A program made the translations under genes and the position numbers. A stretch of DNA of 64,000 nucleotides from Bdellovibrionales bacterium (GTDB lineage: Bacteria; Myxococcota; XYA12-FULL-58-9; SYDY01): positions 19,722-83,721 of the forward strand of contig SYDY01000121.1 of the NCBI GenBank assembly GCA_005801425.1, in the 5' to 3' direction. Below are positions 11,620-57,610 of this stretch, in pieces. Position 1 is the stretch's first letter, and each line of letters begins with the position of its first letter. The notes under the pieces are model-generated. The model was given only the letters and a program-made list of their open reading frames with translations, was not told the DNA's origin and made no database searches.

Positions 11620-12400
11620 TCGTTACCAGCCAACACATCACGCATGCTGTATAGCCCCGGCGTTCGGCCTAAAAGCCAGCGTGCGGCCCTAAGTGCGCCT
11701 GCAGCGAAAATATCGCCACTTGAACTGCGATGGGTAATTTCCAAACGTTCACCATCACCTAGAAAAAATACGGTATGATCGCCACTGGCATCGCCACCAC
11801 GCATCGGCGCATAACCGAGCTCGGACGACTGGCGTGCTTCTGTATGCTGGCAACGGTCAAGCACATCATGCACATCAGGGCGACCTGCTTTGACCGCACG
11901 GCCAAGCGCAAGACCTGTACCGCTGGGCGCATCGCGTTTGTGACGATGATGGATCTCACTGATCTCCACATCAAATGGCACGCCCAAACGTGCAGCCGCG
12001 AGTTCTACAAGTTCGAGCATCACGTTGACACCGGTACTTAAATTGGCCGCCTGCACCACTGCGCAGCGTTCCGCAAGCGATCGTATCGTTAGGTTATCGG
12101 ATGCAGACATGCCCGTAGAAGCAAGCACGTAGCCCGTACCATGGGCCGCACAAAGCGCCGCCACAGAGGACACAGCCGCTGGTGCTGTAAAATCAATGAC
12201 CACATCGGCTTTGGGTATCACGACTTCGGCGTGCTCAATCACAAGGCCACCTTCGATGCGATCACCAAGACGTTCTTCGCGATCGATACCGCCCACCACC
12301 ACAATGTCCGTCGACTCTGCCGCCAAACGCAACACACGACCGCCCATGCGTCCTGTCGCACCCAAAACAGCAAGTCCACAACGTTTTTTATTGTTCACGA
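11616..12400 (-). CDS. dapB: 4-hydroxy-tetrahydrodipicolinate reductase
   Basis: LAVLGATGRMGG N-terminus and EISEIHHRHKRDAPSGTG C-domain. The track ORF extends to 12539, but the DapB fold begins near a GTG at about 12400 (VNNKKRCGLAVLG). The start is uncertain. Confidence 0.8.
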
Positions 12401-12418: not shown

Positions 12419-12447
12419 GGGCGGTTCGCGAACCGCCCCTACATATG
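12419..12447 (+). repeat. REP-like palindromic element copy A (GGGCGGTTCGCGAACCGCCC + CTACATATG), overlapping the stop codon of lat
   Basis: Seen directly. A 9-bp stem palindrome with the conserved 3' tail CCTACA. Confidence 0.85.
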
Positions 12448-18389: not shown

Positions 18390-19442
18390 TTATGGCGCAG
18401 CAAGCTGCGCCGCTACCTGCGCCATCACCACCTTGCGCGCAAGCGCACTCAGCGGTGCTGCGAGAGGATCAACGACCGCATGAAGCGCAAGACGTCGTGC
18501 CAAAGAATTTTTCTTTTTTGTCGGCACATAAACCGTTGCACGAACATCACGATGGGTCAGTTGATGGGACACCGAGATACCCGATGAAACAAGATCACAC
18601 CCGCATTGTTCCATGAGTTCTGCATGGGCTGTCTTGCCTTCGCATGAATAGGGTTCCCACAAACCCGCCCACAAGCCTTCTAAACCCCGTTGGCGCAAAT
18701 ACACACGACCATCGGATGCAGAAAGCCACAGATACGCCACTTCTAAAATTTGACGTTTGGGCGGCGGATTAGGCACAGGCAATTCATTCACACGATCGTT
18801 CGCCAATGCCCCACAATGCATACGCAGCGGGCAAACAGTACATTGGGGTTGTTTGGGCGTGCAAATCAATGCGCCCAATTCCATGAGCGACTGGTTCAAA
18901 TCGCCAGGACGTTCGCCTTGAACCAATGCCTCAGCCAAAGCCCAAAGTTTTTTTTGTCCCGCGGATGATTTCGGCGCGTCATCGATCAAAAAAATACGAC
19001 ACAGCACACGCTCGACGTTACCATCCACCAACGGGGCTCGTTGCTTAAAAGCAATCGAAGCGATGGCACCTGCGGTGTATCGTCCTATGCCTGGCAAGGT
19101 TTGCAATGTGAGCGCATCGCCTGGGATCACCCCTTGATATTCTTCAACAACGGCACGCGCACCGCGATGCAAAAGCCGAGCACGACGATAATAACCAAGC
19201 CCAGCCCATGCTTCGCAAACCGACAATTCTTCGGCCTCAGCCAATGCCTGTACTGTGGGAAATCGTTCAAGAAACGCATCATAGCGCTTCATGACCGTAT
19301 CCACTTGGGTTTGCTGAAGCATAATTTCGGAGACCCAAATGGCATAGGGATCTTGATTGCGACGCCATGGAAGAACACGTTTGGATGCTTCGTAAAATGC
19401 CAAGAACTTTTCTCTTATTTTTTTTATTTCAGAGAGGTCCAT
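18390..19442 (-). CDS. mutY: A/G-specific adenine DNA glycosylase
   Basis: HhH-GPD domain (VLPWRRNQDPYAIWVSEIMLQQTQV), the [4Fe-4S] loop CTPKQPQCTVCPLRMHC, and a C-terminal NUDIX-like domain. Start at MDLSEIKK. Confidence 0.85.
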   Translation of the reverse strand: MDLSEIKKIREKFLAFYEASKRVLPWRRNQDPYAIWVSEIMLQQTQVDTVMKRYDAFLERFPTVQALAEAEELSVCEAWAGLGYYRRARLLHRGARAVVEEYQGVIPGDALTLQTLPGIGRYTAGAIASIAFKQRAPLVDGNVERVLCRIFLIDDAPKSSAGQKKLWALAEALVQGERPGDLNQSLMELGALICTPKQPQCTVCPLRMHCGALANDRVNELPVPNPPPKRQILEVAYLWLSASDGRVYLRQRGLEGLWAGLWEPYSCEGKTAHAELMEQCGCDLVSSGISVSHQLTHRDVRATVYVPTKKKNSLARRLALHAVVDPLAAPLSALARKVVMAQVAAQLAAP

Positions 19443-20160
19443 CAAGCGATCCTCGTACAAATTGTGCAACCACAGGATCCGTACTTTCGTAAATTTTATC
19501 GGCATTTCCCTGGTACAAAACAGCGCCTTGATAAAGCATCAAGATCTGCTTGCATAATGGAAAAATCAAATCCAAAGCATTGGAAACAATCACAGAAGCC
19601 ATGCCCACGTCACGTGCCAACATGCTCAATCTATCAAGCACCTGTACGCTGGTTTCTGGATCAAGTCCTGCCGTGGGATCATCAAAAAGACCAAGTTTGG
19701 GCTTTGCAACTACAGCGCGCGCAACACCCACGCGTTTACGCATACCCCCCGATATTTCGTGGGGAAATTTATCTTTGGCGTCCCACAACCCGATGCTTTG
19801 TAAAATTTCATGGATCCTGAGTTCCAGTGATGATTCGTCGACACCCGCACGGCGCAACACAAACGCGACATTTTCAAACACCGACAGTGAATCAAACAAG
19901 GCATCGTGTTGAAACGCCATGCCTACCTTGCTACGCCATGCATCGCTGCGAAGCATATCTGGCTCCCATGCCTGTCCATGTGCATTGATATCGCCAACCG
20001 TCATAGGCATCAAACCGGCCAATGCTTTAAGCAGCACTGTTTTCCCGGATCCTGGAGGTCCTATGATGCCCATCATTTCACCCGGTGCAATATGCAAAAA
20101 ATCGAGCAGCAACAGCGTTCGATCGTGATGACAGACCAGAATATCACGCAGCGTAATCAC
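19429..20160 (-). CDS. ABC transporter ATP-binding protein (MlaF-like)
   Basis: Walker A GPPGSGKT, signature ISGGMRKRVGVARA, Walker B LGLFDDP. Confidence 0.85.
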   Translation of the reverse strand: MITLRDILVCHHDRTLLLLDFLHIAPGEMMGIIGPPGSGKTVLLKALAGLMPMTVGDINAHGQAWEPDMLRSDAWRSKVGMAFQHDALFDSLSVFENVAFVLRRAGVDESSLELRIHEILQSIGLWDAKDKFPHEISGGMRKRVGVARAVVAKPKLGLFDDPTAGLDPETSVQVLDRLSMLARDVGMASVIVSNALDLIFPLCKQILMLYQGAVLYQGNADKIYESTDPVVAQFVRGSLDGPL

Positions 20161-41974: not shown

Positions 41975-42005
41975 GGGCGGTTCACGAACCGCCCCTACAG
42001 AGAAC
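41975..42005 (+). repeat. REP-like element copy B (GGGCGGTTCACGAACCGCCC + CTACAGAGAAC) between convergent rocD and argF
   Basis: Seen directly. Confidence 0.85.
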
Positions 42006-42022
42006 AAGAAACCGATCCAAAT

Positions 42023-42940
42023 TCAACGATTTTCTAGCAAAAATGTCATGAGTGCCTTTTGCGCATGCAGACGATTTTCTGCTTGATCAAAAACACGCGA
42101 TTGCGGGCCATCTATCACTTCAGCGGACACTTCTTCGCCGCGATGTGCAGGCAAACAATGCAAGAATATGGCATCGGGCTTCGCACGTTTCATCAAACGT
42201 CCATCCACTTGGAAACCGGAAAAATCACGCACGCGTTTGGCTTGCTCTTCTTCTTGTCCCATAGAAGCCCAAACGTCGGTATACACCACATCGGCACCTT
42301 CAACGGCACCCAAATCATGACATACTTCAATTTTAGCACCCGAAGCCTTTGCGGCTGTCTGGGCCTCACGCACAATTTCATCTTTGGGCGCGTATTCTCG
42401 GGGCGTAATGATCCGCACATTCACGCCTGCCAATGCGCCGCCGAGCATCATGGAATGGGCCATATTGTTGCCATCGCCCACATACACCAATGTTTGTCCG
42501 GCCAAGGTCCCACGGTTTTCTTTGATGGTCTGCAAATCTGCCAAGATCTGACACGGATGCAATAAATCATCCAAACCGTTGATCACGGGCACGCGCGACG
42601 CCGAGGCCAATCCTTGAACCTCTTCATGCTTGTAGGTTCGGATCATCAAAATATCGAGATAGCGCGACAATACTTTGGCAGTATCCGTAATCGGTTCACC
42701 ACGACCAATCTGAATGTCACGGGAGGACAAAAAGATGGCCTGTCCGCCCATTTGAATGGCGCCAGCTTCAAAAGATACCCGTGTGCGTGTCGAACTCTTC
42801 TGGAAAATCATACCGAGCACTTTGCCGCGCATGGCTTGGGCATAGGCTTCGGGGCGTTGCTTCATGTGCGCAGCACGGTCGAGCACCAATGTTTGTTCTG
42901 CGGCTGAAAGATCGAGATCACGGAGAAAATGTCGTGTCAT
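42023..42940 (-). CDS. argF: Ornithine carbamoyltransferase
   Basis: STRTRVSFE carbamoyl-phosphate motif and HCLPAHRGEEV ornithine-binding motif. Confidence 0.9.
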   Translation of the reverse strand: MTRHFLRDLDLSAAEQTLVLDRAAHMKQRPEAYAQAMRGKVLGMIFQKSSTRTRVSFEAGAIQMGGQAIFLSSRDIQIGRGEPITDTAKVLSRYLDILMIRTYKHEEVQGLASASRVPVINGLDDLLHPCQILADLQTIKENRGTLAGQTLVYVGDGNNMAHSMMLGGALAGVNVRIITPREYAPKDEIVREAQTAAKASGAKIEVCHDLGAVEGADVVYTDVWASMGQEEEQAKRVRDFSGFQVDGRLMKRAKPDAIFLHCLPAHRGEEVSAEVIDGPQSRVFDQAENRLHAQKALMTFLLENR

Positions 42941-43019: not shown

Positions 43020-43051
43020 GGGCGATTCACGAATCGCCCCTACAAGAAAAC
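43020..43051 (+). repeat. REP-like element copy C (GGGCGATTCACGAATCGCCC + CTACAAGAAAAC) between argF and thiI
   Basis: Seen directly. Compensatory G-to-A and C-to-T changes in the stem preserve pairing. Confidence 0.85.
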
Positions 43052-45508: not shown

Positions 45509-46131
45509 TGCACCCTCGCCGTAATTCCCTGCTGCATCATGATCTCACCTTCTGTGAGCAATAATTCATCAAGACGTGCTGCAATGATTTCTGGGGATGC
45601 CTCTTTGCATGCAAGACGCACAAAAAGTCGATAATGCCCAGCTTCTGCACGAGCAAGCCGTGAATAAAATGTGCGAAGCGACGGATCTTCCAAGTATTCG
45701 CCCAGTAAAAACAGCCGTTCCCAAGAACGTGCTTCGACAATGCCAACAATCAGAAGCCAGTCGATCTTACGCGCACTGGGATGGCCTTGTCGCCGAAGTT
45801 TCATCAACGCAACCACGTAAGGATCACCCCGGTCTGAACCAAGCATGGCACCACGTGCATGAAGCAAATCAACAACCTGTTGAAAATGTCGCAATTCCTC
45901 TTGCGCCAATCGTGCCATAGCCAACAAAAGATCTGTGTCTTCAGGATATGAACTGATCAAAGAGATCGCAGTCGCGGCCGCCTTGCGTTCGCAATGGGCA
46001 TGATCTTGTAACAATGCAATGAGATCGCTTTTGGCAACATCAACCCATATTCTAGGGGTAGGAACTTTAAGGATCTGATGCGGATGTTGCATTTCGGCAT
46101 CGATACGTTCAAGGGAAATGGCGACGCTCAT
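45505..46131 (-). CDS. Putative tRNA-(ms2io6A37)-hydroxylase MiaE-like ferritin-fold diiron protein
   Basis: HCERKAAATAISLI and EELRHF ... EARSWERL ... EAGHYRLF fit two E..H diiron motifs of the MiaE family. Moderate confidence. Confidence 0.5.
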   Translation of the reverse strand: MSVAISLERIDAEMQHPHQILKVPTPRIWVDVAKSDLIALLQDHAHCERKAAATAISLISSYPEDTDLLLAMARLAQEELRHFQQVVDLLHARGAMLGSDRGDPYVVALMKLRRQGHPSARKIDWLLIVGIVEARSWERLFLLGEYLEDPSLRTFYSRLARAEAGHYRLFVRLACKEASPEIIAARLDELLLTEGEIMMQQGITARVH

Positions 46132-48446
46132 ATATCCGCACCTATTTCAATTTCAATGGCTTGAAATCCTGCATCGCGAATAGCGCGTGCCACAGAGGAA
46201 GTGCCTTCTGGGCACACGGCGATCATCGATCCTCCACCCCCACCGCCGGTAAGTTTCGCACCTGTTGCACCGTGATTGCGCGCAAGATCAACAAGCATTT
46301 CAAGTTCAGGACAGGAAACCTGCAATGCATTCAAAAGGCCATGGTTAAGATTGAATAACAAACCCAGTTCTTGCCAATCGCCTTTTTTGAGTGCTTCAGC
46401 ACCCGCAAGAACCAAAGTATCAATGTCCTGGAAAATGCGTTGATACAAATGAGGAGACGCATCAAAACCTGCACGCACGCGTGCCACCATTTTTGCGGTC
46501 AGGCTTTGAACGCCCGTCATACCGATCACCAATGGTAAAGGCTCCCCAAGTGCAATATTTGTGATGATAGGAGCTTCACCTTTTTGAAACATCATCAAAC
46601 GGCCATAGGTGGCCATGGTGTTATCAATCCCCGATGCCGTGCCATGGGCGATGGTTTCCGACGCATAGGCCAAGGCATTGACGCGTTCATTTGAAAGACC
46701 TAGCGCAAAATACGTATCCAATGCGCGTACAACAGCAACAGCCAAGGCAGCTGAGCTACCAAGCCCTGCGGCACGTGGAATTTGTGGATCGATACGGATA
46801 ATCATATCGCGATCATTCAAACCAAGATCATCCAAAATGACCGAAAGACAATCTTCCAAAGAGCTTGCATTGGCTTGCTTTCGGACCACACGTTCGACAC
46901 CCCAGGTTGGGATCACAAGTCGTATGCCGGGTGTATCAGAAGCAAGAACGCGCGCACCCACGGCCAATGGAACAGGCGCTGCAATCGCATGGGTTCCATA
47001 CACCACCGCATGTTCACCAAGTAAAATCACTTTGCCCGCACCCGTACATTCGGGTGAAAAAGCAACCTGCGGCTCAGTATCGTACGTCGTAAGTTCGCGG
47101 ATAATTTCTTGGGCCTTCCACATTTTAACTTCACCACTGGCCACCAAGGATTTTACCACCTGTTCAAAAATAGCCGATGAAGCCCCTGCGGACGCCGCCA
47201 CACTGCGTGCATGCAAATTCATATGGCCACGCTGGATCCCATCGGTGACCAAGGCACGAAGTGCCGAAAAATTTTGTGCAAGTCCTGCTGCAACCATCAC
47301 TTCAGAGAGTTGCGCTGCGGAGGGTGTCCCCAAAATACGATGGGCAAGCGCTACCATGGGATTAGACTGTAAATTACCGCCCACAACACCCACTTTGATG
47401 GGCATTTTCAGACGGCCACGTAAATTGCCTTCGGCATCTTTCCACCATTGTGTAAGCGACGTGTAAGATCCGGTACGTGCAGCATAAGCATGAGCGCCTG
47501 CTTCCATGGAACGCCAATCGTTGCCTGTCGCGATGGCAACGGCATCAATGCCATTCATAATCCCTTTGTTGTGTGTTGCGGCTCTGTACGGATCGACCGC
47601 CGCAAAATCATTGGCCAGGATCACGCCATCACATACTTCTTCGCCGCTGTAGCCTTTGCCCTCAAGACTCCTCAATGAAAACACCACTTCAGCGCATGCA
47701 AGCGCGCGATCGGCGAGATTTGATAAGATCCGAAGAAAAGCTTTTCCACCAGTCAGTTCTTCCAAGAGCGGCGCCACTTCTTCACACATACTATTCACCA
47801 TATTGGCGCCCATGGCATCGCACGTATTCACCACCAGATGTATTACAAGCATTTCGGCTTTGGTGGTCGGTGCACGATGACGAACCACTTCGACATCAAG
47901 CGCCCCACCACCGCGGGCGACCATCCGAGGATGCAAGCTGTTGGCAAGCTCAAGGATCGTTTGACGTGCCGCCATCACCGCTTGGCGTGCTTTTGTAATG
48001 GATGGAACTTGGGTAATTTGCACTTGTCCCAAAAGAACAGATTCTGCTGGAATACAACGAAAGCCACCACCAGCACGTGCTGCTAACGCAGCAGAACTGA
48101 TGGCCGCAATGATCGACGGTTCTTCAACCACCATAGGAATAATGCGTTCTACATCGTTGATCACAAAATTAAGGCCCAAGCCCATCGGTAAGCCAAAAAC
48201 ACCGATGACGTTTTCAACCATTTTATCGGCATCGCGATCGGTCAAACGAAATCGTCCCGCCAACAATGCATCGCGATCGGTCGCGCTTAAAATATTTTTT
48301 TCAACAAGAATGCGAAGGCGATCCTGTCCTGAAAGTCTGTAAAATCCTGAAAGACGCGAGGTTACCACATCATGCTCCTGCAACAACCGAAACACCTGCT
48401 TGGGCCTTATGGAGATCCAAATCGACAAGATGATTTTCTTGGGCAA
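46128..48446 (-). CDS. Fused class II HMG-CoA reductase / mevalonate kinase
   Basis: The N-terminal ~430 aa have ENVIGVFGLPMGL, DAMGANMVN, TGNDWR and GIQRGHMNLHAR (class II HMGR). After a short linker (TYDTEPQVAFSPEC) the GHMP kinase begins: TGAGKVILLGEHAVVYG, PRAAGLGSSAA, KLTGGGGGGS. No stop separates the two halves. The track start at 48446 is TTG and overlaps the upstream PMK gene by 77 nt, so the true start is probably internal. Confidence 0.8.
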   Translation of the reverse strand: MPKKIILSIWISIRPKQVFRLLQEHDVVTSRLSGFYRLSGQDRLRILVEKNILSATDRDALLAGRFRLTDRDADKMVENVIGVFGLPMGLGLNFVINDVERIIPMVVEEPSIIAAISSAALAARAGGGFRCIPAESVLLGQVQITQVPSITKARQAVMAARQTILELANSLHPRMVARGGGALDVEVVRHRAPTTKAEMLVIHLVVNTCDAMGANMVNSMCEEVAPLLEELTGGKAFLRILSNLADRALACAEVVFSLRSLEGKGYSGEEVCDGVILANDFAAVDPYRAATHNKGIMNGIDAVAIATGNDWRSMEAGAHAYAARTGSYTSLTQWWKDAEGNLRGRLKMPIKVGVVGGNLQSNPMVALAHRILGTPSAAQLSEVMVAAGLAQNFSALRALVTDGIQRGHMNLHARSVAASAGASSAIFEQVVKSLVASGEVKMWKAQEIIRELTTYDTEPQVAFSPECTGAGKVILLGEHAVVYGTHAIAAPVPLAVGARVLASDTPGIRLVIPTWGVERVVRKQANASSLEDCLSVILDDLGLNDRDMIIRIDPQIPRAAGLGSSAALAVAVVRALDTYFALGLSNERVNALAYASETIAHGTASGIDNTMATYGRLMMFQKGEAPIITNIALGEPLPLVIGMTGVQSLTAKMVARVRAGFDASPHLYQRIFQDIDTLVLAGAEALKKGDWQELGLLFNLNHGLLNALQVSCPELEMLVDLARNHGATGAKLTGGGGGGSMIAVCPEGTSSVARAIRDAGFQAIEIEIGADI

Positions 48447-49419
48447 TCAAAATACGAAATTTATCGCAAGCATCGCGATCAGCAAACCACGCCATTCCGA
48501 GATCGCCCCCACCTGCGCCCGAAGGTTTATACACGCCACCACAATAATGGGCCAGCTTGCGTGCTCTTGCATGCCCTGGCGTTAGCATCGGTAAATCCAT
48601 CAGATCGCCTAGGCGACACAACATCGATGAATAGGAATCTACGATTGAAATAAAACGATTGATGTCGCCCTCGGCCCAAGCCGCCAGACCTTCTTCAGCA
48701 AGCGCACAGAGATCACGAACCACGGGCATCATCTGTTTAGGATTTTCGGAACATGCCCAATGAAATTTTTCGAGCCTGGTGGCTGTGTTGCTGCTTTCTT
48801 GGGGCCAGATATAAACCGCATGCAGGTTTTGAGGCCAAGCAAGATCGTCACTGATTGTCACGTCATCCCCATGCCATTGTACCGAACGTATGCCGCCGAA
48901 ATAGCTTGCAACAACGTCCATACCACTGCCACGATGATTTTGTTCTGCTTGGTGCAATGCAATCAATTGACGCCACGAGAACACGGGCGGTTCACGAACC
49001 GCCCCTACAGAAGAACCACAACAATCTGATTTTTTTTCACGAACCAACGCCCCTACATATTCTTCAACTGCTTTCGCGGTTGCGACCATCAATGCTGCGC
49101 TTGAACCAATGCCAAGCTTGATGCCCGTTTTGAGATCGGAAAACGCGGACGTGTCCACCGTAATCGCAGCATCGTGTAGATCCGGTGCACTCGCTTCAAT
49201 CACCCGACGAACAAATCCGAAATATGGATCTAACTCACTAAAAATATCTGGTGATGTTTTATGGCCCGAAGAAACACAAACATGTCCAGGATGCGTACAA
49301 ATCGTTGTTTCGGCAAATCGATCGACAGCCATCACAAGACCTGGTGCACCATGCAATACAGCATACTCCCCAAGAAGAACCACTTTCCCGGGTGCTCGCG
49401 CCGTCAACATGCGCTTCAC
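48370..49419 (-). CDS. Phosphomevalonate kinase (GHMP family) carrying an in-frame tandem REP-element insertion
   Basis: APGKVVLLGEYAVLHG, GIGSSAALMVA and GSGMDVVASYFGG motifs. Residues VGALVREKKSDCCGSSVGAVREPPVFSW are encoded by the REP copies at 48985-49062. Confidence 0.7.
   Translation of the reverse strand: MKRMLTARAPGKVVLLGEYAVLHGAPGLVMAVDRFAETTICTHPGHVCVSSGHKTSPDIFSELDPYFGFVRRVIEASAPDLHDAAITVDTSAFSDLKTGIKLGIGSSAALMVATAKAVEEYVGALVREKKSDCCGSSVGAVREPPVFSWRQLIALHQAEQNHRGSGMDVVASYFGGIRSVQWHGDDVTISDDLAWPQNLHAVYIWPQESSNTATRLEKFHWACSENPKQMMPVVRDLCALAEEGLAAWAEGDINRFISIVDSYSSMLCRLGDLMDLPMLTPGHARARKLAHYCGGVYKPSGAGGGDLGMAWFADRDACDKFRILIAQENHLVDLDLHKAQAGVSVVAGA
48985..49062 (+). repeat. REP-like element copy D plus a degenerate half-copy D', in frame inside the phosphomevalonate kinase gene
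   Basis: GGGCGGTTCACGAACCGCCC CTACAGAAGAACC at 48985-49017. TTCACGAACCAACGCCCCTACATATTC at 49036-49062. Confidence 0.85.
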
Positions 49420-50417
49420 TGAAGAACCTCATTGACCTGAACACCTGAGCCCAATCCCACAATTTGCACCGCTTCAACACCCGGTACAGATCGAAGATCT
49501 TCGGCAATACGTTCGGCGTCATCGCCCTGGCAAATGACTTTGACCTGCGGCCCTGCATCCATGGTAAAGCATGCAGCAATACCCGAGGCACGAAGCGCAC
49601 GAACACGATGCATCACTTCAACCGACGCACCATTCCAGTACAAAAGTCCGGGATCTGCCGCCAACATCACTGCATGCATTTTGAGGCAGCTTTGTTCGGT
49701 AACAGAGGCAAGTAAATCAAAATCACGCGTCGCAATCGCACCGCGCATAGCATCGAGATCCTGCGACGATGTTTCAACCCATGCAGGGTAATAAGGTGAT
49801 GTGGATGCTGTGAGTTCCATCCCTGCCGATGAAGATGTTATTTTACGATCCAAGCGCGTCATCACAACAACTATTTTTAATGGCCATTGATCGCCCGAAA
49901 GGAGTTGTTCAGCATAGGCACTCCGATTATCTCCTGGCGATCCCCTATGCATTTCAACAAAGCCACCAAAAATAGACCTCGCCGCCGAACCTGATCCGCG
50001 CCTGGCCAAGCATGTCAATTCACGGGGCGTAAGATTTAAATTTGCCGCCGTAGAGGCTGCCGAAGCCAGTGCTGCAAAACCCGAGGCAGAAGAGGCAAGA
50101 CCTACTGCAAGAGGAACAGTGCTTGTGCTCACCACATGGGCCGCATCACTTCGACCCGCAATCGTACGAACAAGATCCAGAAATTCTGTCACACGTGCGT
50201 ATTCACGCCCTTGTGCAGCAAGCCCATTGATTTCAACAATGTCGGGGCCTGATATACCTAAAAACGTCACCGCTGTTGTGCTGTTAAGCTTACCCAACGT
50301 GACCGAGATAGAACCAACAGCAGGAATATTCAGCGCAGCGTCACTCTTGCCCCAGTACTTCACGAGAGCAATATTGGCACCGGCCACCGCCTGCATCGTT
50401 TTACTTCTCAAATGCAC
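49416..50417 (-). CDS. mvaD: Diphosphomevalonate decarboxylase
   Basis: ANIALVKYWGK hallmark and the GHMP fold. Confidence 0.85.
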   Translation of the reverse strand: MHLRSKTMQAVAGANIALVKYWGKSDAALNIPAVGSISVTLGKLNSTTAVTFLGISGPDIVEINGLAAQGREYARVTEFLDLVRTIAGRSDAAHVVSTSTVPLAVGLASSASGFAALASAASTAANLNLTPRELTCLARRGSGSAARSIFGGFVEMHRGSPGDNRSAYAEQLLSGDQWPLKIVVVMTRLDRKITSSSAGMELTASTSPYYPAWVETSSQDLDAMRGAIATRDFDLLASVTEQSCLKMHAVMLAADPGLLYWNGASVEVMHRVRALRASGIAACFTMDAGPQVKVICQGDDAERIAEDLRSVPGVEAVQIVGLGSGVQVNEVLQ

Positions 50418-51190
50418 TGTGTTCGTCCTCCATCGACGGCTATTGATGTACCACGCATATAGGCGGCACTAGGGCTTGCAAGAAAAACAGCAAGTGCCGC
50501 AATTTCACGAGGTTCTGCCAAACGATGTTCGGGAACTGCAGCGGTCCATCCTGCAAGAATGGACTCGGGCGAAACATGGTTGTTCGTGGCAAGAGTGTCA
50601 CGAAGTTTTGTTAAACGATCGGTATTGGTGAACCCAGGCAAAATATTATTCACCGTGATCCCAGGAGGAAGTTCTTTGGACAATGTTTTTGACCAGCCTC
50701 CCATGGCCGCACGCACGGTATTGGATACGCCCAAATGGTGAATCGGTTCACGCACCGATGTCGATACAATGTTGATGATGCGGCCATAGCCCAGCCGCTC
50801 CATGCCAGGAACAAAATTTTGTGCCAGCACATGAGACGCCAACACGTGCTGCGTAAAAACGCGCATCATCGTGTTTGTTGTGGCCTTAAGCAACGGTCCT
50901 GGCTCAGGACCGCCCGAGTTGTTGATCAAAATATGCACATCACCCATACGAACAGAAATTTCTTCTGCAGCACGCGCCGTTGCATCCAGATCAGTAAGAT
51001 CGACCGAAACAGAAATTGCATCCACGCCTTTGGCATTAAGCGCACGTGTTGTTTCTTCAAGTGATTTTGGATCGCGACCAAGAATAGCCACGGAAACGCC
51101 TTCGTCCGCCAAGGCGTCGGCAATGGCCCGACCAATGCCACGACTTCCTCCGCACACCACAGCACGTTTTCCATGAAGACCTTCGGACAT
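50408..51190 (-). CDS. Short-chain dehydrogenase/reductase (SDR)
   Basis: Cofactor motif VVCGGSRGIGRAIA, NNSG, and the catalytic Y-x3-K region. Confidence 0.8.
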   Translation of the reverse strand: MSEGLHGKRAVVCGGSRGIGRAIADALADEGVSVAILGRDPKSLEETTRALNAKGVDAISVSVDLTDLDATARAAEEISVRMGDVHILINNSGGPEPGPLLKATTNTMMRVFTQHVLASHVLAQNFVPGMERLGYGRIINIVSTSVREPIHHLGVSNTVRAAMGGWSKTLSKELPPGITVNNILPGFTNTDRLTKLRDTLATNNHVSPESILAGWTAAVPEHRLAEPREIAALAVFLASPSAAYMRGTSIAVDGGRTQCI

Positions 51191-51191
51191 G

Positions 51192-52235
51192 TTACGCGTC
51201 TCCTTGAAATTCTCTCACCAGAACACTGGCATAGCCACCCGAAGGCAATGAAAAGCAAAGACGCAAATCCTCGCCGTCCATCGAAACATCAAGTTCTTCA
51301 GGAATAACAACATAGGGCCGACGTGTACCCTCTGCAATGGATCCAATGCGCGCAAACATGTCCACATCCATCCCAAAGCGTTCATAGACGGATGCTTCCT
51401 GTGCAGCAGTCTCCCCTTCGGTCATCAACATTTTGGGTCCAAGCATCGGGCCTGTCACACACAATTCACCTTGATCCAGACGGGTTTGATCATGCGCAGG
51501 ATCTTCACACAAAAATGCCGAACGGCCAGCATGACGTTGCAGAGCATCACCTGCCTGCACCACATTCAAAGTGCCTGCACGCATGCGTTCAGACAAACAA
51601 ACATTAAACAAAGCCGACTGAACCGATGAAATAGCCATGCGGTACTGGCGTTTGTCGGGATGACGTTTCGACGCGCCCTGAAGTGCAAGAAGCCCCTCCC
51701 GGATTGTATTGCCATCGTAACCAAACCGTTGCGAGCCATAAAAGTTAGGAAAACCCACCGTGCGTATATGTTGCGCGATCTCAGCGCAGCGCTGTTCCGC
51801 ATCCGCTCCCACGCCTCGCAACCAAAGAAGAAATCGATTGCCGCGAAGATGCCCTGTTTTCAATTTATTGCCATGACGCGCCCAGTGCAGAACTTTAAAT
51901 TTTTCGCCTGAAAAGTTCCAATCCATGTCCACTTTGTCGGCACGCACTGACACATATTGGCGCGTGATCCCTATTTTGTCTTTCATCCCTGCCACGCCCA
52001 GATCACGAACAGGAATGCCTGTATGGCGTGAAATTTCATCTAACAGAGAAGGCGTGGTGAGATTTTTCTTTTCAATCCAAAGATAAACATGGTCACCTTC
52101 GCCGCTGGGCTCATACGCAGGAATTTCTTCTACACAAAAATCTTCGTCGCCTGATTTAAAGATACCGCCACATCCAGGAATATGTGCGGACATACGTGGC
52201 ATCTTCGATGCTGCAAAAAAAAGGTCATTAATCAT
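51192..52235 (-). CDS. truD: tRNA pseudouridine(13) synthase
   Basis: TruD family motifs GVAGMKDKIGITRQ, FPNFYGSQRFG. Confidence 0.8.
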   Translation of the reverse strand: MINDLFFAASKMPRMSAHIPGCGGIFKSGDEDFCVEEIPAYEPSGEGDHVYLWIEKKNLTTPSLLDEISRHTGIPVRDLGVAGMKDKIGITRQYVSVRADKVDMDWNFSGEKFKVLHWARHGNKLKTGHLRGNRFLLWLRGVGADAEQRCAEIAQHIRTVGFPNFYGSQRFGYDGNTIREGLLALQGASKRHPDKRQYRMAISSVQSALFNVCLSERMRAGTLNVVQAGDALQRHAGRSAFLCEDPAHDQTRLDQGELCVTGPMLGPKMLMTEGETAAQEASVYERFGMDVDMFARIGSIAEGTRRPYVVIPEELDVSMDGEDLRLCFSLPSGGYASVLVREFQGDA

Positions 52236-52933
52236 TATTTTACTATCCCAACATAAAGATGTGCTGCACCAAAACTTAATCGCGAAAATTTAACATCACG
52301 AAGACCCGCACGGACCATCGAAGCAGCAAATACTTCTGGTGCAGGAAATTTCGCAACGGAGTCTTTAAGATACGTATATTCTGTCGACCGGCCTGCAAAA
52401 ATTCGTCCCAAGAGAGGAACCACACGGTGAACATACAGACGTGCAAAAAAGCCAAAGGGGCCAGTACTCGGCTCGCCCAATTCAAGCACCGCAACCCGAC
52501 CACCTGATTTTGTCACGCGGATCATTTCACGCAATCCCAGATCGCGATCAGGTACATTGCGAATGCCAAAGCTGATGCATGTCCCCGAAAATTGTTGGTC
52601 CACAAAGGGCAAAGCCTCGGCGCTTCCGCCCAGCAGTTCAATCCTTTGCTGCAATTGTGATGCAATAATTTTTTGGCGGCCGACGGCCAACATCGCATTG
52701 CTTGGATCCACACCCACCACCATGCTTTGTGGGATTGTCTGTGCAATCGCAAGCGCAACATCGGCAGTTCCTGTGGCCACATCAAGGACGCGATCACCTG
52801 GTTTAAGTTCCAACATCGCAATCAATTTTCGACGCCAACGTTGATCAAGGCCCAAGCTCATCATGCGATTCATGACGTCGTATTTAGGCGCGATTCTATC
52901 AAACATCGCGCCACTTCCCAAACGTGTTTCCAT
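52235..52933 (-). CDS. ubiE: Demethylmenaquinone/ubiquinone C-methyltransferase
   Basis: FDRIAPKYDVMNRMMSLGLDQRWRR and VLDVATGTADVA motif I. Confidence 0.85.
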   Translation of the reverse strand: METRLGSGAMFDRIAPKYDVMNRMMSLGLDQRWRRKLIAMLELKPGDRVLDVATGTADVALAIAQTIPQSMVVGVDPSNAMLAVGRQKIIASQLQQRIELLGGSAEALPFVDQQFSGTCISFGIRNVPDRDLGLREMIRVTKSGGRVAVLELGEPSTGPFGFFARLYVHRVVPLLGRIFAGRSTEYTYLKDSVAKFPAPEVFAASMVRAGLRDVKFSRLSFGAAHLYVGIVK

Positions 52934-52946
52934 ATTCAGTTCCTCG

Positions 52947-54047
52947 TTATCTTACGCGCTGCACAGATGCTTCTACCACGAAACGCAAAGGTTCTAGGGC
53001 ATCACTTGGTGGCAATCGATCAATGGCCAGCGTTGCTTCTTCGGCATAGCGCAAAGCCAATGCTTTGGTATCTTCAATCACTTCAAGTTTTTTTGCACGA
53101 ACCACAAGTTCATTCATTTCGGCGAGAGATGCATCTTGGGTGATCACATGACGCAGTTCAGCAAGCAAAGAGGGATCGCGTTCGGCGGCCAAGATCCATG
53201 GCCATGTCAACTTGCCCTCTTTTAAATCAACCAGAGGATCCTTGCCCAAAACGGCGGCATTTCCGTCCAAGTCAAGAAGATCATCCACCAATTGGAATGC
53301 CATCCCCAAACTGGTGCCCATGGTGCACAGTTCGGTTTCAATGCTTTTTTCTGCTGAAGCGACCCGAGCACCCGCACACAACGCCCATGAAAACAAACGT
53401 GCTGTTTTTCCACGAATAATTTCCAAATAAAGATCTTGGTTGGGAGAAAATGTCCCACGGCGTTCAAGCTGCAATGCTTCACCGGCAACCATGTCGCGCA
53501 GCGTATCCAACATATCGCATAACAGGTCAAAATGTCCTGTATTTGCAATAAAACGCAATGCAGTAACAAGAAGGTGATCACCGCCCAAAATACTGGCCGC
53601 ATTGCCGTAAATCACGCGCGATGCTGTCGCGCCTCGGCGTTCATCGGCATCATCGATCACATCATCATGAAGCAGTGTTGCGGCATGAACCAACTCTGCC
53701 GCAATGGCGAGATCATGGCGTTCAGGCGCGTTCTTGGTCCCAAGGCGAGCGCCCAGCAAAACACACAAAGCGCGCACACGCTTTCCTGGAAGTGAAAGCA
53801 ATTGCGCAGCAGCAGCCGAAACATGTTCAGATCGCGTTCCTGAAGCTCCTTCCAGTGCATCAATTTTTGATATCACTGTTTCGATCTCCGAGAGATCTGA
53901 AGCAAGCCAAAGTCTGATCTCTTCCAGTCGCGTGGAGGTATCCGTGCAACCATGACGCTCTGTCGTCAGCTGAAGTAGCGGCAAAACTTCCGATGCTGAC
54001 ACCGCTGTGGAATAACTGCTATGTTTCTGTATCACGATGCTCTCCAC
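52947..54047 (-). CDS. Polyprenyl diphosphate synthase (IspB-like; supplies the menaquinone side chain)
   Basis: First DDxxD LLHDDVIDDADERRG and second FQLVDDLLD. The start is uncertain because of the divergent neighbour. Confidence 0.85.
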   Translation of the reverse strand: MESIVIQKHSSYSTAVSASEVLPLLQLTTERHGCTDTSTRLEEIRLWLASDLSEIETVISKIDALEGASGTRSEHVSAAAAQLLSLPGKRVRALCVLLGARLGTKNAPERHDLAIAAELVHAATLLHDDVIDDADERRGATASRVIYGNAASILGGDHLLVTALRFIANTGHFDLLCDMLDTLRDMVAGEALQLERRGTFSPNQDLYLEIIRGKTARLFSWALCAGARVASAEKSIETELCTMGTSLGMAFQLVDDLLDLDGNAAVLGKDPLVDLKEGKLTWPWILAAERDPSLLAELRHVITQDASLAEMNELVVRAKKLEVIEDTKALALRYAEEATLAIDRLPPSDALEPLRFVVEASVQRVR

Positions 54048-55818
54048 GGAAGATCACAGGGGAATTCGCATGGTTTTTACCCATACGCTTACCGCGCGTT
54101 TGTTTGACATCGACCGCGCAGGTATTGTCTTTTTCGGTCGTTTTTTTGAATACTGCCAGGCCGCCCTCGAAGAGCTCACAACTCATATCTTTGGACGATC
54201 CGATGCCGGTTTCACTGCCGGGTGGGGCATGCCGGTCGTCCACACCGATGCCGACTACCGTGCTCCCACGCATATGGGTGATCGACTTCGTGTTGAGGTT
54301 CGCATCGAAAAGATCGGAACCAAATCCATCACATTTCAATATACCATCATGGGTGATGAGGATTGCGTCATCCGAGCGATCTGTCGCATCACGCATGTTT
54401 GCGTCGATCTTAAAACTTTCAAAAGCTGCACTGTTCCCGCTGCATTCGTCGATGCCATGCGACGCCACGGTATGTTGGATCCCCTGCCTTAAAGCAGATC
54501 GGTCTATTTTCCCCATGCGATTCATGGGAAATTCCAAACACACGATAAAGTGTTTGGGAACTTGGGTTGCAGGCAAATGCGCTTTGCACCAAGACCGTAC
54601 TTCGTTCACAGACAATTCGAACTCTGGTTTGGCAACAAGTGCAGCCAACAGCACTTGCCCCATGCAAGCATCATCCAATCCAACCACACACACGGAGGAT
54701 ACTCCGGGATGTTTCTCAAGAACACGTTCAATGGCCGATGGGCTTATATTTTCGCCGCCAGAAATAATCACATCATCACTGCGACCTTGAATTATCACGT
54801 GGCCATCGTGCACTGCACCGAGATCATGGGTTAAAAGTTCGTCTTGAAAACCAGGACCGTGCACCGCCAAATGCCCATCATGTGAAGTCACCTGACAAAA
54901 AGGCAAAGGCCATACATGCGCGTGGGGATCATCGGCAAATGATGTTGCGATTTGCGATCCTGCTTCGGTCATTCCCCATGACATCACAACAGGGATCTCA
55001 GCCGCACGCGCGCGTTGCAACAATGACTCTGGACATGCGGAACCGCCGATAAGTGCTGCACGCAATTTCGATTGCACCGGCAATCCTGGTTTTACATCAA
55101 GCAATTGATGCAGCATGGCGGGCACTAGGGATACAAGATGCACATCGCCTGTTTCGATTCGGGCATGGACCCTCGGTGCAGAAAACGGCAAACTCAGTTC
55201 AACGCACGTTGCGTACCACAAACAGCGCAAAAGCACCGCGATACCACCCACATGATCAAGCGGCAGACATAAAAGCCATGTGTCACTGGGCAAATGTCCC
55301 ATGCGGATCATGGAACCCATGGCAGAAAAAAACAGTGTTTGCGTGGTAAGGATCACCAAGCGATTGCGACCGGTGGTGCCTGATGTAAAAACGCCCACGC
55401 GGGGTGCATTCATGGGCCATGCTACCGCCTGGAACACCCCCACCGCCTCGCTATCGCTCAGCGACTCCCCAAAAGGGAGAGTGTTAGCGGCAAGATCAAC
55501 CGAACTCACCAGAAACGCTGCTTCTGATATTTTCAGCGCCTCTTGTATCTGAGACGAAGAAAAATCCCTGGGTGGGATCACAGCACACGCGCCAAGCCAG
55601 CCTATGGCGTGAAAATCGACGACCCAATCCATATCAAAGGGTCGATGCAGAAAAACACGGGACGTTTCGACAACACCTTGCGAGGCCATGAACGCTGCAC
55701 GTTGCATCACGCGATCGCGCAATTCACGATAAGTCCATTGTAATGCACCATCACGTAGCGCAATATGATCAACCCGCGTGTTTGCTGCCACGTCAAGAGG
55801 ATTGGGTAACTTACTCAT
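54019..55818 (-). CDS. menE: O-succinylbenzoate--CoA ligase (adenylate-forming); the ORF's last ~150 codons run antisense through the thioesterase gene
   Basis: AMP-binding motifs FTSGTTGRNRLV, the hinge region, and C-terminal MGKIDRSALRQG. No in-frame stop until 54019, so the 3' end is uncertain. Confidence 0.7.
   Translation of the reverse strand: MSKLPNPLDVAANTRVDHIALRDGALQWTYRELRDRVMQRAAFMASQGVVETSRVFLHRPFDMDWVVDFHAIGWLGACAVIPPRDFSSSQIQEALKISEAAFLVSSVDLAANTLPFGESLSDSEAVGVFQAVAWPMNAPRVGVFTSGTTGRNRLVILTTQTLFFSAMGSMIRMGHLPSDTWLLCLPLDHVGGIAVLLRCLWYATCVELSLPFSAPRVHARIETGDVHLVSLVPAMLHQLLDVKPGLPVQSKLRAALIGGSACPESLLQRARAAEIPVVMSWGMTEAGSQIATSFADDPHAHVWPLPFCQVTSHDGHLAVHGPGFQDELLTHDLGAVHDGHVIIQGRSDDVIISGGENISPSAIERVLEKHPGVSSVCVVGLDDACMGQVLLAALVAKPEFELSVNEVRSWCKAHLPATQVPKHFIVCLEFPMNRMGKIDRSALRQGIQHTVASHGIDECSGNSAAFESFKIDANMRDATDRSDDAILITHDGILKCDGFGSDLFDANLNTKSITHMRGSTVVGIGVDDRHAPPGSETGIGSSKDMSCELFEGGLAVFKKTTEKDNTCAVDVKQTRGKRMGKNHANSPVIFRGEHRDTET
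54070..54492 (+). CDS. Hotdog-fold acyl-CoA thioesterase (4HBT/YbgC family), probably 1,4-dihydroxy-2-naphthoyl-CoA hydrolase of the menaquinone pathway
   Basis: ARLFDIDRAGIVFFGRFFEYCQAALEEL and VVHTDADYRAPTHMGDRLRVEVRIEKIGTKSITFQY match the 4HBT core. It lies inside the men cluster. Confidence 0.7.
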   Translation: MVFTHTLTARLFDIDRAGIVFFGRFFEYCQAALEELTTHIFGRSDAGFTAGWGMPVVHTDADYRAPTHMGDRLRVEVRIEKIGTKSITFQYTIMGDEDCVIRAICRITHVCVDLKTFKSCTVPAAFVDAMRRHGMLDPLP

Positions 55819-56780
55819 CCAACCCTCTCTATGGGATCGAATGGTGTGTACAAACTTTCCACATCAAGCATGCCATCAACCACCAAAGGACTTACTTGAG
55901 GGATCTCCAACAAGGGCCCCAAAAATCCACAAGGCAAGAGGGGAACATCAAGAGAAGCGGCAACACAAGCCGCAGCATGACGACCGATACTCGACTCAAG
56001 TGCATGGGTGATCGTAATTTCAAAACCTGCAGCAATGGCCTTTCGCGCCATGTCTGTTGTGACCGACAAACCGCCTAAAAACATGGGTTTAAGCACAATG
56101 ACATCCGCCGCACCCATTTCCAGTAATCGCAAAAATCCACCCGGTGTCACCACAGATTCATCGGCCGCAATTTTCATATCCACGCGCTCGCGGAGCCATC
56201 GCATGCCTGCGAGATCATCATGGGCGACCGGTTGTTCTGCAAGCGCAATATTCGCGGTATCAAACGTTCGCAAGGCATGCAGCGCCTCCTCGGCCGTCCA
56301 CACACCATTGGCATCAACCCAAAGTGCAACGTCATTGCCAAGGGCTTCGCGTAAGGCATGAAGCAATCGTGCATCTTCATCGAGTGCACCGCGACCTACT
56401 TTGATTTTAAACGTTCGGATCCCTTGGCTGTAAGCAATCAATGCTTCGTCAACTGAGGAAACCAGTGCGTGAACAGGAACCAACGTTTTATCGGGCGGTT
56501 CACGAACCGCCCCTACAAGAGAACACCTGAGAGAAAGTTCTAAAAACGCTGTTTCTACCGCAAAATCCCATGCCTTCGCCCCATCGCCAAACCCTGGCCA
56601 GGGTGCCGATTCACCAACACCAATATCTCCGTCTTCATTTTCAAGACGCAACCATACACCCCGGCGCATTATCTTTTCAGATAAATGCTGCTCATAGGGA
56701 TGCAAAGTCGCGCGTGAAATTTTCACAGAAGTGCTCCTGCCGTCAGCAATAGGGAAAAACGCACCATCATACGTGGGCAT
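55815..56780 (-). CDS. menC: o-succinylbenzoate synthase (enolase superfamily), carrying an in-frame REP insertion
   Basis: Enolase-superfamily metal ligands (KIKVG ... WVDANG ... DESV). Position in the men operon supports the call. Residues LVGAVREPP are encoded by the REP copy at 56493-56524. Confidence 0.7.
   Translation of the reverse strand: MPTYDGAFFPIADGRSTSVKISRATLHPYEQHLSEKIMRRGVWLRLENEDGDIGVGESAPWPGFGDGAKAWDFAVETAFLELSLRCSLVGAVREPPDKTLVPVHALVSSVDEALIAYSQGIRTFKIKVGRGALDEDARLLHALREALGNDVALWVDANGVWTAEEALHALRTFDTANIALAEQPVAHDDLAGMRWLRERVDMKIAADESVVTPGGFLRLLEMGAADVIVLKPMFLGGLSVTTDMARKAIAAGFEITITHALESSIGRHAAACVAASLDVPLLPCGFLGPLLEIPQVSPLVVDGMLDVESLYTPFDPIERVG
56493..56524 (+). repeat. REP-like element copy E (GGGCGGTTCACGAACCGCCC + CTACAAGAGAAC), in frame inside menC
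   Basis: Seen directly. Confidence 0.85.
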
Positions 56781-57610
56781 TCAGAAAAAGAGGCGTTAAG
56801 CGCGGCACCCGACGATTGATTGATTTTTTGAATCAAACGGATTGTAGGGATTAGCAATACGGTAGGAAGTGCCCATTCCCATCGGTGCGTTTGCACAGCC
56901 AATGCAACAATCAACAACAACGGAAGAATCAGCAACATAGCGATGAGACGACGCTGCCATGAAACGCCAAACCGCACCGCCAATGTGCGCTTGCCTGCAG
57001 CGGCATCGCTTGTTACATCACGAAGATTATTCAGTCCCAAAATGGCTGCGGCATAGTACCCAAGCGCAAATCCTGCGACCCATGCCTCTTGCGATACCCA
57101 TCCTGTATGCAAAAAATAAGCACCGCACACCGCCACAGGACCAAAGAATAAAAACGCAACGCATTCACCAAGGCCATGGTAAGCAAGCGGCCAGGGGCCA
57201 CCGGTATAGGCAATTGCCGTGATGGCAGACACCACGCCAATAGCACAAATAATCCATCCGCCGTACCAGACAAGCCACCCACCACAGAGCGCTGCTATCA
57301 ACAGACTGATCAACGTGCCCACGTGCAATTGTGACGGAGTCAACCATCCCATGCTTGCGGCACGCGGGGGCCCTAAACGCTGATCCTGCTTGTCGGTTCC
57401 GCGTTCAAAATCAGCAGCATCGTTGTGCAAATTGGTTGCGATTTGCAAACACAATGTGGTCACCAAAGTCACGCCAAAAACGAGAAGTGAAGCATGCTTT
57501 TTCGCCGATGCAAGCACAAACGCCACCACAACGGGCGCTGCACCGATCACCAACGTAGGAAGGCGCATGGCCAAAAGCCATGCTCTTGTTTGCGTGTTGA
57601 CACTCATCAA
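56723..57610 (-). CDS. menA: 1,4-dihydroxy-2-naphthoate polyprenyltransferase (UbiA family)
   Basis: Multi-TM UbiA-type protein with [15 protein letters not shown] (the NDxxD-like Asp-rich motif). Confidence 0.8.

Follow-up and report, generated by a model that had tools for sequence, protein, structure and literature searches.

Probable GTAG-type REP elements in frame within a phosphomevalonate kinase-like gene and an o-succinylbenzoate synthase gene of an uncultured Bdellovibrionales bacterium

Introduction

A GTAG tetranucleotide next to a palindrome is the defining architecture of repetitive extragenic palindromic (REP) elements associated with the REP-associated tyrosine transposases (RAYT, or TnpA_REP; PMC3733652, PMC2817692, PMC8266576). 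Here we describe a stretch of 64,000 nucleotides (hereafter the window) from an uncultured Bdellovibrionales bacterium (assembly GCA_005801425.1, contig SYDY01000121.1, positions 19,722 to 83,721) that contains seven copies of a ~33-nt repeat with this architecture, a variant-stem copy and a half-copy included. Four of the seven are intergenic, and the remainder lie in frame inside a phosphomevalonate kinase-like (PMK-like) gene and the gene for o-succinylbenzoate synthase (OSBS, MenC). We consider it very probable that these repeats are canonical GTAG-type REPs, belonging to the type that has been linked to TnpA_REP subclass 2.4 (Bertels group 4), and that the copies inside genes survive as tolerated loops.

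Residence of REPs within genes has been described before. The survey by Di Nocera, De Gregorio and Rocco (2013, BMC Genomics 14:522, PMC3733652), which comprises 24 families, lists GTAG and CGTC REPs from many species that lie inside known genes, with dimers encoding 20–30 amino acids. GTAG REPs are located there mostly between unidirectional or convergent genes, near 3' ends, with some overlapping stop codons or the ends of open reading frames (ORFs). Quentin, Siguier, Chandler and Fichant (2018, BMC Genomics 19:475, PMC6006769) reported that TnpA_REP subclass 2.4, which corresponds to Bertels' RAYT group 4, is patchily distributed among Cyanobacteria, Bacteroidetes and a variety of other phyla, and that its REPs are "canonical long" with three G-C pairs at the bottom of the stem and include "double-foot" forms. 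The same study described in-frame REPs of this type, including a hairpin in frame after the HUH motif of a subclass 2.4 transposase. In Rickettsia, palindromic repeats (Rickettsia palindromic elements, RPEs) occur in frame in functional genes (Ogata et al. 2000, as cited in PMC3733652); RPE-4 and RPE-6, the short ones, were assigned by Di Nocera et al. to the CGTC type. The REPs of E. coli are recognised as single-stranded DNA and cleaved at a neighbouring CT, and intergenic copies stabilise the 3' ends of mRNA (PMC8266576). The first-pass annotation of the window had stated that in-frame palindromes are well known only in Rickettsia and a few other reduced genomes, a statement that is contradicted by the in-frame REPs already present in PMC3733652 and PMC6006769.

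The repeats in the window share with the REPs of the 2013 survey a GTAG foot joined to a short G+C stem-loop, an intergenic bias and an in-frame minority. They differ in that the pair in the PMK-like gene is head-to-tail, a dimer type that was reported there as rare, and in that the host belongs to an uncultured, deep-branching lineage. With subclass 2.4 they have in common the three-G-C stem bottom, double-foot forms in other genomes and a patchy distribution over many phyla; on the other hand, no tnpA_REP gene was seen in the window, and its copies are all single-foot. The first-pass annotation's reading of the repeats as REP-like palindromes is supported, and the likeness to RPEs drawn there is borne out by the residence of two of them in frame in intact, conserved enzyme genes, where they are tolerated as loops. 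RPE-1 is ~100–150 bp in length. In contrast to RPEs, the elements in the window are ~33 nt long, are of GTAG type and have no sequence relation to them, and the host has no sign of a reduced intracellular genome. Judged by sequence, the GTAG-plus-hairpin arrangement also appears similar to that of the E. coli REP/BIME and group 2/3 REPtrons (Ton-Hoang 2012; Corneloup 2021, PMC8266576), whereas the stem of E. coli REPs is bulged and their copies form inverted pairs (BIME/REPIN), and the window elements have perfect stems and are single or head-to-tail. The exact DNA and peptide strings of the element had no matches in a literature search, and the peptide was also not present in the portion of the PMC3733652 supplements that was covered.

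Results

Architecture and copies of the repeat in the window

Read on the minus strand, all six full copies had GTAG directly abutting (offset 0) an 8-bp perfect G+C stem with a 4-nt loop, the bottom of the stem being formed by three G-C pairs (GGG/CCC). The short 5' flank was pyrimidine-rich (TGTTCTCT-like) with CT dinucleotides, and a CT was located 0–2 nt 5' of GTAG in the copies at 41975, 43020, 48985, 56493 and 62493. RNA folding of the full copies gave energies of -15 to -16.6 kcal/mol (-15.9 kcal/mol for the copy at 48985), and the half-copy at 49036–49057 (-5.1 kcal/mol) had no stable hairpin left. In the copy at 43020 there was a paired G>A and C>T change by which stem pairing was kept, and the same variant recurs in other genomes. 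The GT[AG]G foot and a palindrome of 20–40 nt that forms a stable stem-loop with compensatory stem variation are among the features by which GTAG REPs are recognised.

The 20-nt palindrome GGGCGGTTCACGAACCGCCC, allowing three mismatches or fewer, was matched at 12419, 41975, 43020, 48985 and 56493, and 100 shuffles of the window yielded no match. Similarly, GGGCGGTTCRCGAACCGCCC followed by CTACA was present in five copies, with approximately zero expected by chance, and the palindrome with its tail (TTCACGAACCGCCCCTACA) was on the plus strand in all five copies. The copy at 62493 has a variant stem (GGGCAAGGCGAGCCTTGCCC) but the GCCCCTACAG end in common with the other copies, and the half-copy reads TTCACGAACC-AAC-GCCCCTACA, with a 3-nt indel and with its left arm lost and now a T-run. 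A pattern-free scan for GT[AG]G joined to a perfect hairpin with 7 bp or more gave seven hits, all of them on the minus strand (shuffle expectation 0.74, both strands combined). Together, the palindrome and hairpin scans confirmed the coordinates, the orientation and the set of copies first reported (12419, 41975, 43020, 48985 with the half-copy at 49036, 56493 and 62493). The tail CTACARRGAAC, which had been ascribed to the element in general, held for only four copies, with CTACATAT found instead at 12419 and in the half-copy. No further copies were found in the 6 kb to the right of the window, and an Rfam scan of the window identified nothing at the repeats, its sole match being a tRNA. The genes that the copies follow or lie in are on both strands, yet all copies have one absolute orientation, which indicates that orientation depends on the strand of the chromosome rather than on transcription.

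Two other classes of element were considered and rejected. We do not believe the repeats are miniature inverted-repeat transposable elements, which have terminal inverted repeats around a body of 70–300 bp and target-site duplications, because the unit of ~33 nt is itself the hairpin. An intrinsic terminator was rejected for the canonical copies because there is no T-run 3' of them on either strand; a T-run occurs only after a separate second hairpin at 62532–62560. No flanking direct duplication was detected in five aligned copies, nor at the empty site next to rpsD that is described below.

The REP pair in the PMK-like kinase gene

The PMK-like gene (48370–49419, minus strand) of the mevalonate operon is an intact, uninterrupted ORF for a GHMP kinase of 349 residues. 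It has 4-nt overlaps with its operon neighbours, which encode diphosphomevalonate decarboxylase (upstream) and a fusion of HMG-CoA reductase and mevalonate kinase (downstream). Four contigs from the NCBI, ENA and Logan collections taken together encode the identical protein, and the nearest other protein among 5.8 billion had 34% identity. Foldseek indicated a GHMP-kinase fold, with matches to 3k17, to mevalonate kinases and to the PMK 3gon. The NCBIfam models for PMK and for mevalonate kinase both matched below their own cut-offs, and the PMK assignment is therefore based on operon context and the names of homologues.

The gene contains a full REP at 48985–49017 (minus strand, GGTTCTTCT-GTAG-GGGCGGTTCGTGAACCGCCC), which encodes G135-S-S-V-G-A-V-R-E-P-P145, and a degenerate REP at 49036–49057 (minus strand, GTAGGGGCG+TTG+GTTCGTGAA) with an A-run in place of the 3' arm, which encodes V122-G-A-L-V-R-E-K-K130. 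The two form a head-to-tail pair, and their peptide (VGALVREKKSDCCGSSVGAVREPPVFSW) is located between the GIGSSAA motif and GSGMDVVASYFGG, as the first-pass annotation had it.

Alignment with 118 homologues showed that the family-invariant residues are all kept in this protein. The span from A113 to Q160 is 48 residues long versus 28–40 (median 33) in the homologues, residues 130–143 (~14) are essentially without counterpart, and the REP-coded motif was found in 0 of the 118. The AlphaFold2 model (mean predicted local distance difference test score, pLDDT, 91.7) has a helix of 27 residues (106–132) that runs from the GSSAA phosphate-binding motif, a loop (133–148) and a second helix (149–159). 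In the model, the full REP unit, G135-SSVGAVREPP-145, is predicted to fall in loop 133–148, at the helix end remote from the active site. The alignment and model support the full copy as a probable lineage-specific extra segment by which the inter-helix loop would be ~14 residues longer. The peptide of the half-copy (V122-GALVREKK-130) forms the C-terminal turns of helix 106–132 and aligns to native positions in the homologues; an older, decayed REP copy has been absorbed into this helix. Elsewhere in the protein, in the N-terminal region after residue 62, it is ~18–25 residues shorter than most homologues.

The REP in the OSBS gene

The OSBS gene (55815–56726, minus strand) is in an operon with the order menF-menD-menB-menA-[OSBS]-menE, and NCBIfam and Pfam matches identified its 303-aa product as o-succinylbenzoate synthase. 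Its closest relatives in the protein database have ~45% identity. The REP at 56493–56525 (minus strand) encodes C68-S-L-V-G-A-V-R-E-P-P78 and is flanked on both sides, in one frame, by conserved residues: the N-terminal GxGE.AP.PGFG and the catalytic KxK, D, E, D and K. The segment comes after the capping-domain helix and before the first strand of the barrel. In the AlphaFold2 model (mean pLDDT 89.6) it occupies the end of helix 49–70 and loop 71–81, which is the least confident internal segment of the model (block mean pLDDT 54, residues 73–75 below 50).

In long-type homologues the counterpart of the REP-coded segment of OSBS (C68-SLVGAVREPP-78) is a native "G.sLa.LL" segment, and the alignment shows a length gain of zero. 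Based on this alignment, the OSBS copy looks more like a replacement, or an insertion followed by a deletion, than a plain insertion. A VGAVRE string in one OSBS homologue (P0168) was rejected as coincidence, being at another position and in a native helix. A Logan contig from SRR8894381 had 100% identity to the window over 7.5 kb and stopped inside the OSBS REP at position 56501, which shows only that the repeat fragments short-read assemblies.

These analyses determined how the first-pass claims about the two genes fared. Two copies had been proposed to lie in frame in minus-strand ORFs, each contributing VGAVREPP, and this was correct: neither ORF has a frameshift or stop, and both enzymes are intact with their conserved catalytic residues. 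A lineage-specific insertion is upheld for the full PMK copy, which is absent in the 118 homologues, and not for the OSBS copy, which takes a native segment's place. Placement in surface loops agrees with loop 133–148 of the PMK-like protein and is half right for OSBS, where the segment is in a low-confidence loop but as a replacement. The possibility that the peptide is an ancestral one had also been raised; the PMK homologues lack the motif and VGAVRE of P0168 is at another position. Since the catalytic residues are kept and the operons are intact, both enzymes are most likely functional, as far as sequence can indicate.

As a separate observation, OSBS has ~40 fewer capping-domain residues, in its N-terminal region, than most homologues, and the versions of both enzymes found here are unusually trimmed outside the REP segments.

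The shared peptide and the reading frames of the element

On the GTAG strand of the element, frame 2 contains a TAG that comes from GTAG, and frame 3 a TGA that comes from the loop, leaving frame 1 alone open, which reads GSSVGAVREPPV. The complementary strand has no stop in any of its three frames. In every copy here the GTAG strand is the minus strand, which also encodes both host genes; with a single open frame, any copy that survives in these genes must encode VGAVREPP. From its reading frames, the common peptide is thus best regarded as a survivorship effect, a by-product and not a selected trait, and it says nothing on exaptation.

An 80-nt indel next to rpsD

In a JGI contig of a close relative (L122, sample 3300045502) whose ribosomal protein S4 is 97% identical, rpsD and the next gene (AAA_28) are 2–3 nt apart, at L122:781–784. 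At this near-abutting junction the window has 80 extra bases (62489–62568, minus strand), which comprise the variant REP (62493–62517, GTAG-GGGCAAGG..CCTTGCCC) and a terminator-like hairpin with a T-run. The variant REP begins 4 nt past rpsD and the separate hairpin is next to it. This REP-bearing indel is one piece of direct support for mobility.

Occurrence of the element in other genomes, viral contigs and RAYT-like genes

A scan of one genome per species identified GGGCGRTTCRCGAAYCGCCCCTAC in at least 118 stretches from at least 15 phyla. The matches listed came from Chloroflexota, Cyanobacteriota, Acidobacteriota, Omnitrophota, Nitrospinota, KSB1, Myxococcota, Thermodesulfobacteriota, Planctomycetota, Bacteroidota (Parabacteroides), Gamma- and Alphaproteobacteria, Actinomycetota (Rubrobacter), Kiritimatiellota, Calditrichota and Binatota. 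Among these listed matches (L002–L119) the 24-nt core was identical across loci and the flanks were unrelated, and approximately half of the sites were 28-nt double-foot forms (GTAG...CTAC). The core was also present in 37 stretches of IMG/VR viral contigs (L129–L165), often in several copies and in one orientation.

At 28 of 129 sites among the matches listed, the frame ran without a stop for 60 codons or more in both directions. In-frame residence in other phyla was backed by Pfam matches for hydantoinase B (L015:4240–5862, minus strand), the acyltransferase domain of a polyketide synthase (L030:3–6341, plus strand), Maf (L009:1038–1772, minus strand) and a DUF7948 protein with two copies (L022:2980–5592, plus strand). 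The frames read in these four proteins differ (GGSRTAPT, VGAIRESPLL and VGAVREPP).

RAYT-like ORFs were found at four loci (L019, L063, L078 and L080), in three of which the hairpin is itself in frame. In these IS200-like ORFs (L063:187–765, plus strand; L078:1835–2449, minus strand; L019:1–282, plus strand) the element encodes RGGSRTAPT right behind the HUH motif MPNHLHG, in agreement with what PMC6006769 describes for subclass 2.4. They have WQ and YIxxNP motifs and match Y1_Tnp and NF047646, "REP-associated tyrosine transposase", just under the NCBIfam cut-off (68 versus 80 bits). A further RAYT-like ORF (L078:106–753, minus strand) has a different G+C-rich peptide at the position after the HUH motif. 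Clustering of the ORFs from the 118 loci revealed no dominant gene family beside the hairpin.

REPs are usually treated as species- or genus-specific, and identity across phyla is unusual. We regard it as possible, if doubtful, that these loci represent one pan-bacterial, horizontally moving REP/RAYT system (GTAG-GGGCGGTTCGCGAACCGCCC, in many cases with CTAC as a second foot) in which the hairpin is carried within the transposase gene. The extent of this cross-phylum identity may be unreported so far, the literature examined covering the subject only in part.

Intergenic copies, an additional hairpin and genomic setting

Four copies had been described as intergenic or as overlapping a stop codon, and this was confirmed for 12419, 41975, 43020 and 62493. 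The copy at 12419–12443 (minus strand), which has the loop variant CGCG, fills the gap that separates a class-III aminotransferase gene from dapB. It supplies the TAG stop of the aminotransferase gene. The ribosome-binding site of dapB, AAGGA, is ~20 nt further downstream and precedes the most likely dapB start, a GTG near 12397. The copy at 41975–42006 (minus strand) is in a 52-nt gap between convergent genes, 5 nt past the stop of a plus-strand aminotransferase gene and 16 nt before the OTCase stop (42023–42025). The copy at 43020–43051 (minus strand), in which the compensatory stem change is from G-C to A-T, is in a 100-nt gap between the divergent starts of the OTCase gene and thiI.

The pattern-free scan also identified a candidate additional GTAG hairpin at 18394–18416 (minus strand, GTAG-C-GGCGCAGC-TTGC-GCTGCGCC), which has an unrelated 7-bp G+C stem and is in the last codons of the ORF at 18390–19505. 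Its orientation is the same as that of the REPs. It may represent a second REP type or a chance match (chance expectation 0.74 per window).

The closest named relatives by ribosomal protein S4 were Myxococcota metagenome-assembled genomes (~62% identity), and the G+C content of the lineage is near 50%. One gene of 746 aa (46128–48368, minus strand) has complete HMG-CoA reductase and complete GHMP mevalonate-kinase domains and is in the operon with the decarboxylase and the PMK-like kinase. From 50408 to 61700 (minus strand), menF, menD, menB, menA, menC, menE, a polyprenyl synthase gene and ubiE/menG run into truD, a short-chain dehydrogenase gene and the mevalonate operon. With all of these on one strand, the genes for the quinone head and for isoprenoid precursors are clustered.

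Discussion

We propose that the hairpin forms on single-stranded DNA, where it would be recognised by a Y1 HUH tyrosine transposase that would cut at the nearby CT. TnpA_REP has been shown to cleave CT or CA beside GTAG-footed hairpins in vitro (PMC8266576). Spread of copies in a strand-specific manner would account for their uniform orientation. Most surviving copies are intergenic, near gene ends, and survival inside a gene requires the one stop-free frame of the GTAG strand, a length that is a multiple of three and a permissive inter-helix or inter-domain loop. The copies in the PMK-like and OSBS genes both showed this combination. The GC skew of the plus strand is negative throughout the window, which makes the GTAG strand the G-rich strand and hence lagging-strand-template sequence, as the IS200/IS605-type single-strand model predicts.

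Several findings weigh against this interpretation. Simple insertion leaves the zero length gain of the OSBS copy unexplained, and no empty site was found for the PMK or OSBS copy: clusters at 90% identity were singletons, and a metagenome scan gave only distant GHMP kinases. A tblastn search of the 64-kb window with the RAYT-like proteins found no RAYT gene. Of 134 single-foot copies elsewhere (genomes and viral contigs), only 35% were on the locally G-rich strand, the skew over 8 kb being a weak proxy for replication direction. Multi-copy loci elsewhere had one orientation in 11 cases and mixed orientations in 5, and the link of orientation to replication is unproven. The first-pass annotation had also suggested active or recent proliferation. 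As the core is constant across phyla, the sameness of the copies does not show that they are recent, and what stands of that suggestion is the support for mobility from the single 80-nt REP-bearing indel.

The most credible competing explanation, although an improbable one, is that the repeats were spread or homogenised by recombination, gene conversion or hairpin template switching, the in-gene copies being patches that overwrote native sequence. This would fit the OSBS copy, which replaces a native segment of equal length, the degenerate PMK copy on native alignment positions, the 64-kb window without a RAYT gene, and the copies being identical to each other, though the sequence is also identical across phyla. 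It accords poorly with the clean net gain of ~14 residues at the full PMK copy and with the clean 80-nt indel at 62489–62568, and RAYT-like genes are physically linked to the hairpin in other genomes; the single orientation of all copies, for its part, fits a strand-specific enzyme. Far less support was obtained for exaptation of the peptide, which had been suggested as a possibility at the outset; we consider it very unlikely that VGAVREPP and its flank are selected for a function in both enzymes, for instance as an interaction or regulatory loop. The presence of one 11-residue peptide in two enzymes of isoprenoid and quinone metabolism, and of two copies in the PMK gene, could be taken to favour such a role, but a common peptide is forced by the stops in the other two frames of the GTAG strand, and proteins of other genomes read the element in other frames (GGSRTAPT, GRFANRPY). 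In addition, the AlphaFold2 segments have no regular structure and lowered confidence, the peptide of the second PMK copy has decayed, and we found no evidence for exaptation of the REP-coded peptide.

It is less likely still that the two ORFs are pseudogenes, or assembly chimeras joined at the repeat. One Logan contig does end exactly inside the OSBS REP; however, both ORFs are uninterrupted with invariant residues in frame on both sides of the REP, the identical PMK-like protein is on four contigs, and there are 4-nt overlaps with operon neighbours and high-confidence fold models. The idea that the REP segments are ancestral coding sequence that merely resembles an intergenic repeat is effectively refuted: the VGAVRE of P0168, which might have spoken for it, is at a different position in a native helix, both the motif and the extra residues are missing from all 118 PMK homologues, and the segments match the intergenic copies at 25 of 25 nt, plus the tail.

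Canonical GTAG-type REPs tolerated as loops are therefore our preferred reading of the in-gene copies, which are a clean new example of a described behaviour and not a new phenomenon. They add a case of in-frame REPs in two enzymes of essential pathways, mevalonate and menaquinone, in an uncultured, deep-branching bacterium, and show that the behaviour is not special to Rickettsia. The models suggest two predicted permissive sites, in the GHMP-kinase and enolase-superfamily folds, that would accept ~11–14 extra or substituted residues, and the stop codons in the other frames explain why in-gene copies have a common peptide. What remains of most interest is the conservation at the nucleotide level of one REP across phyla and viral contigs. 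If there is indeed a pan-bacterial REP/RAYT system, new protein loops would arise from it quite generally and would still be doing so.

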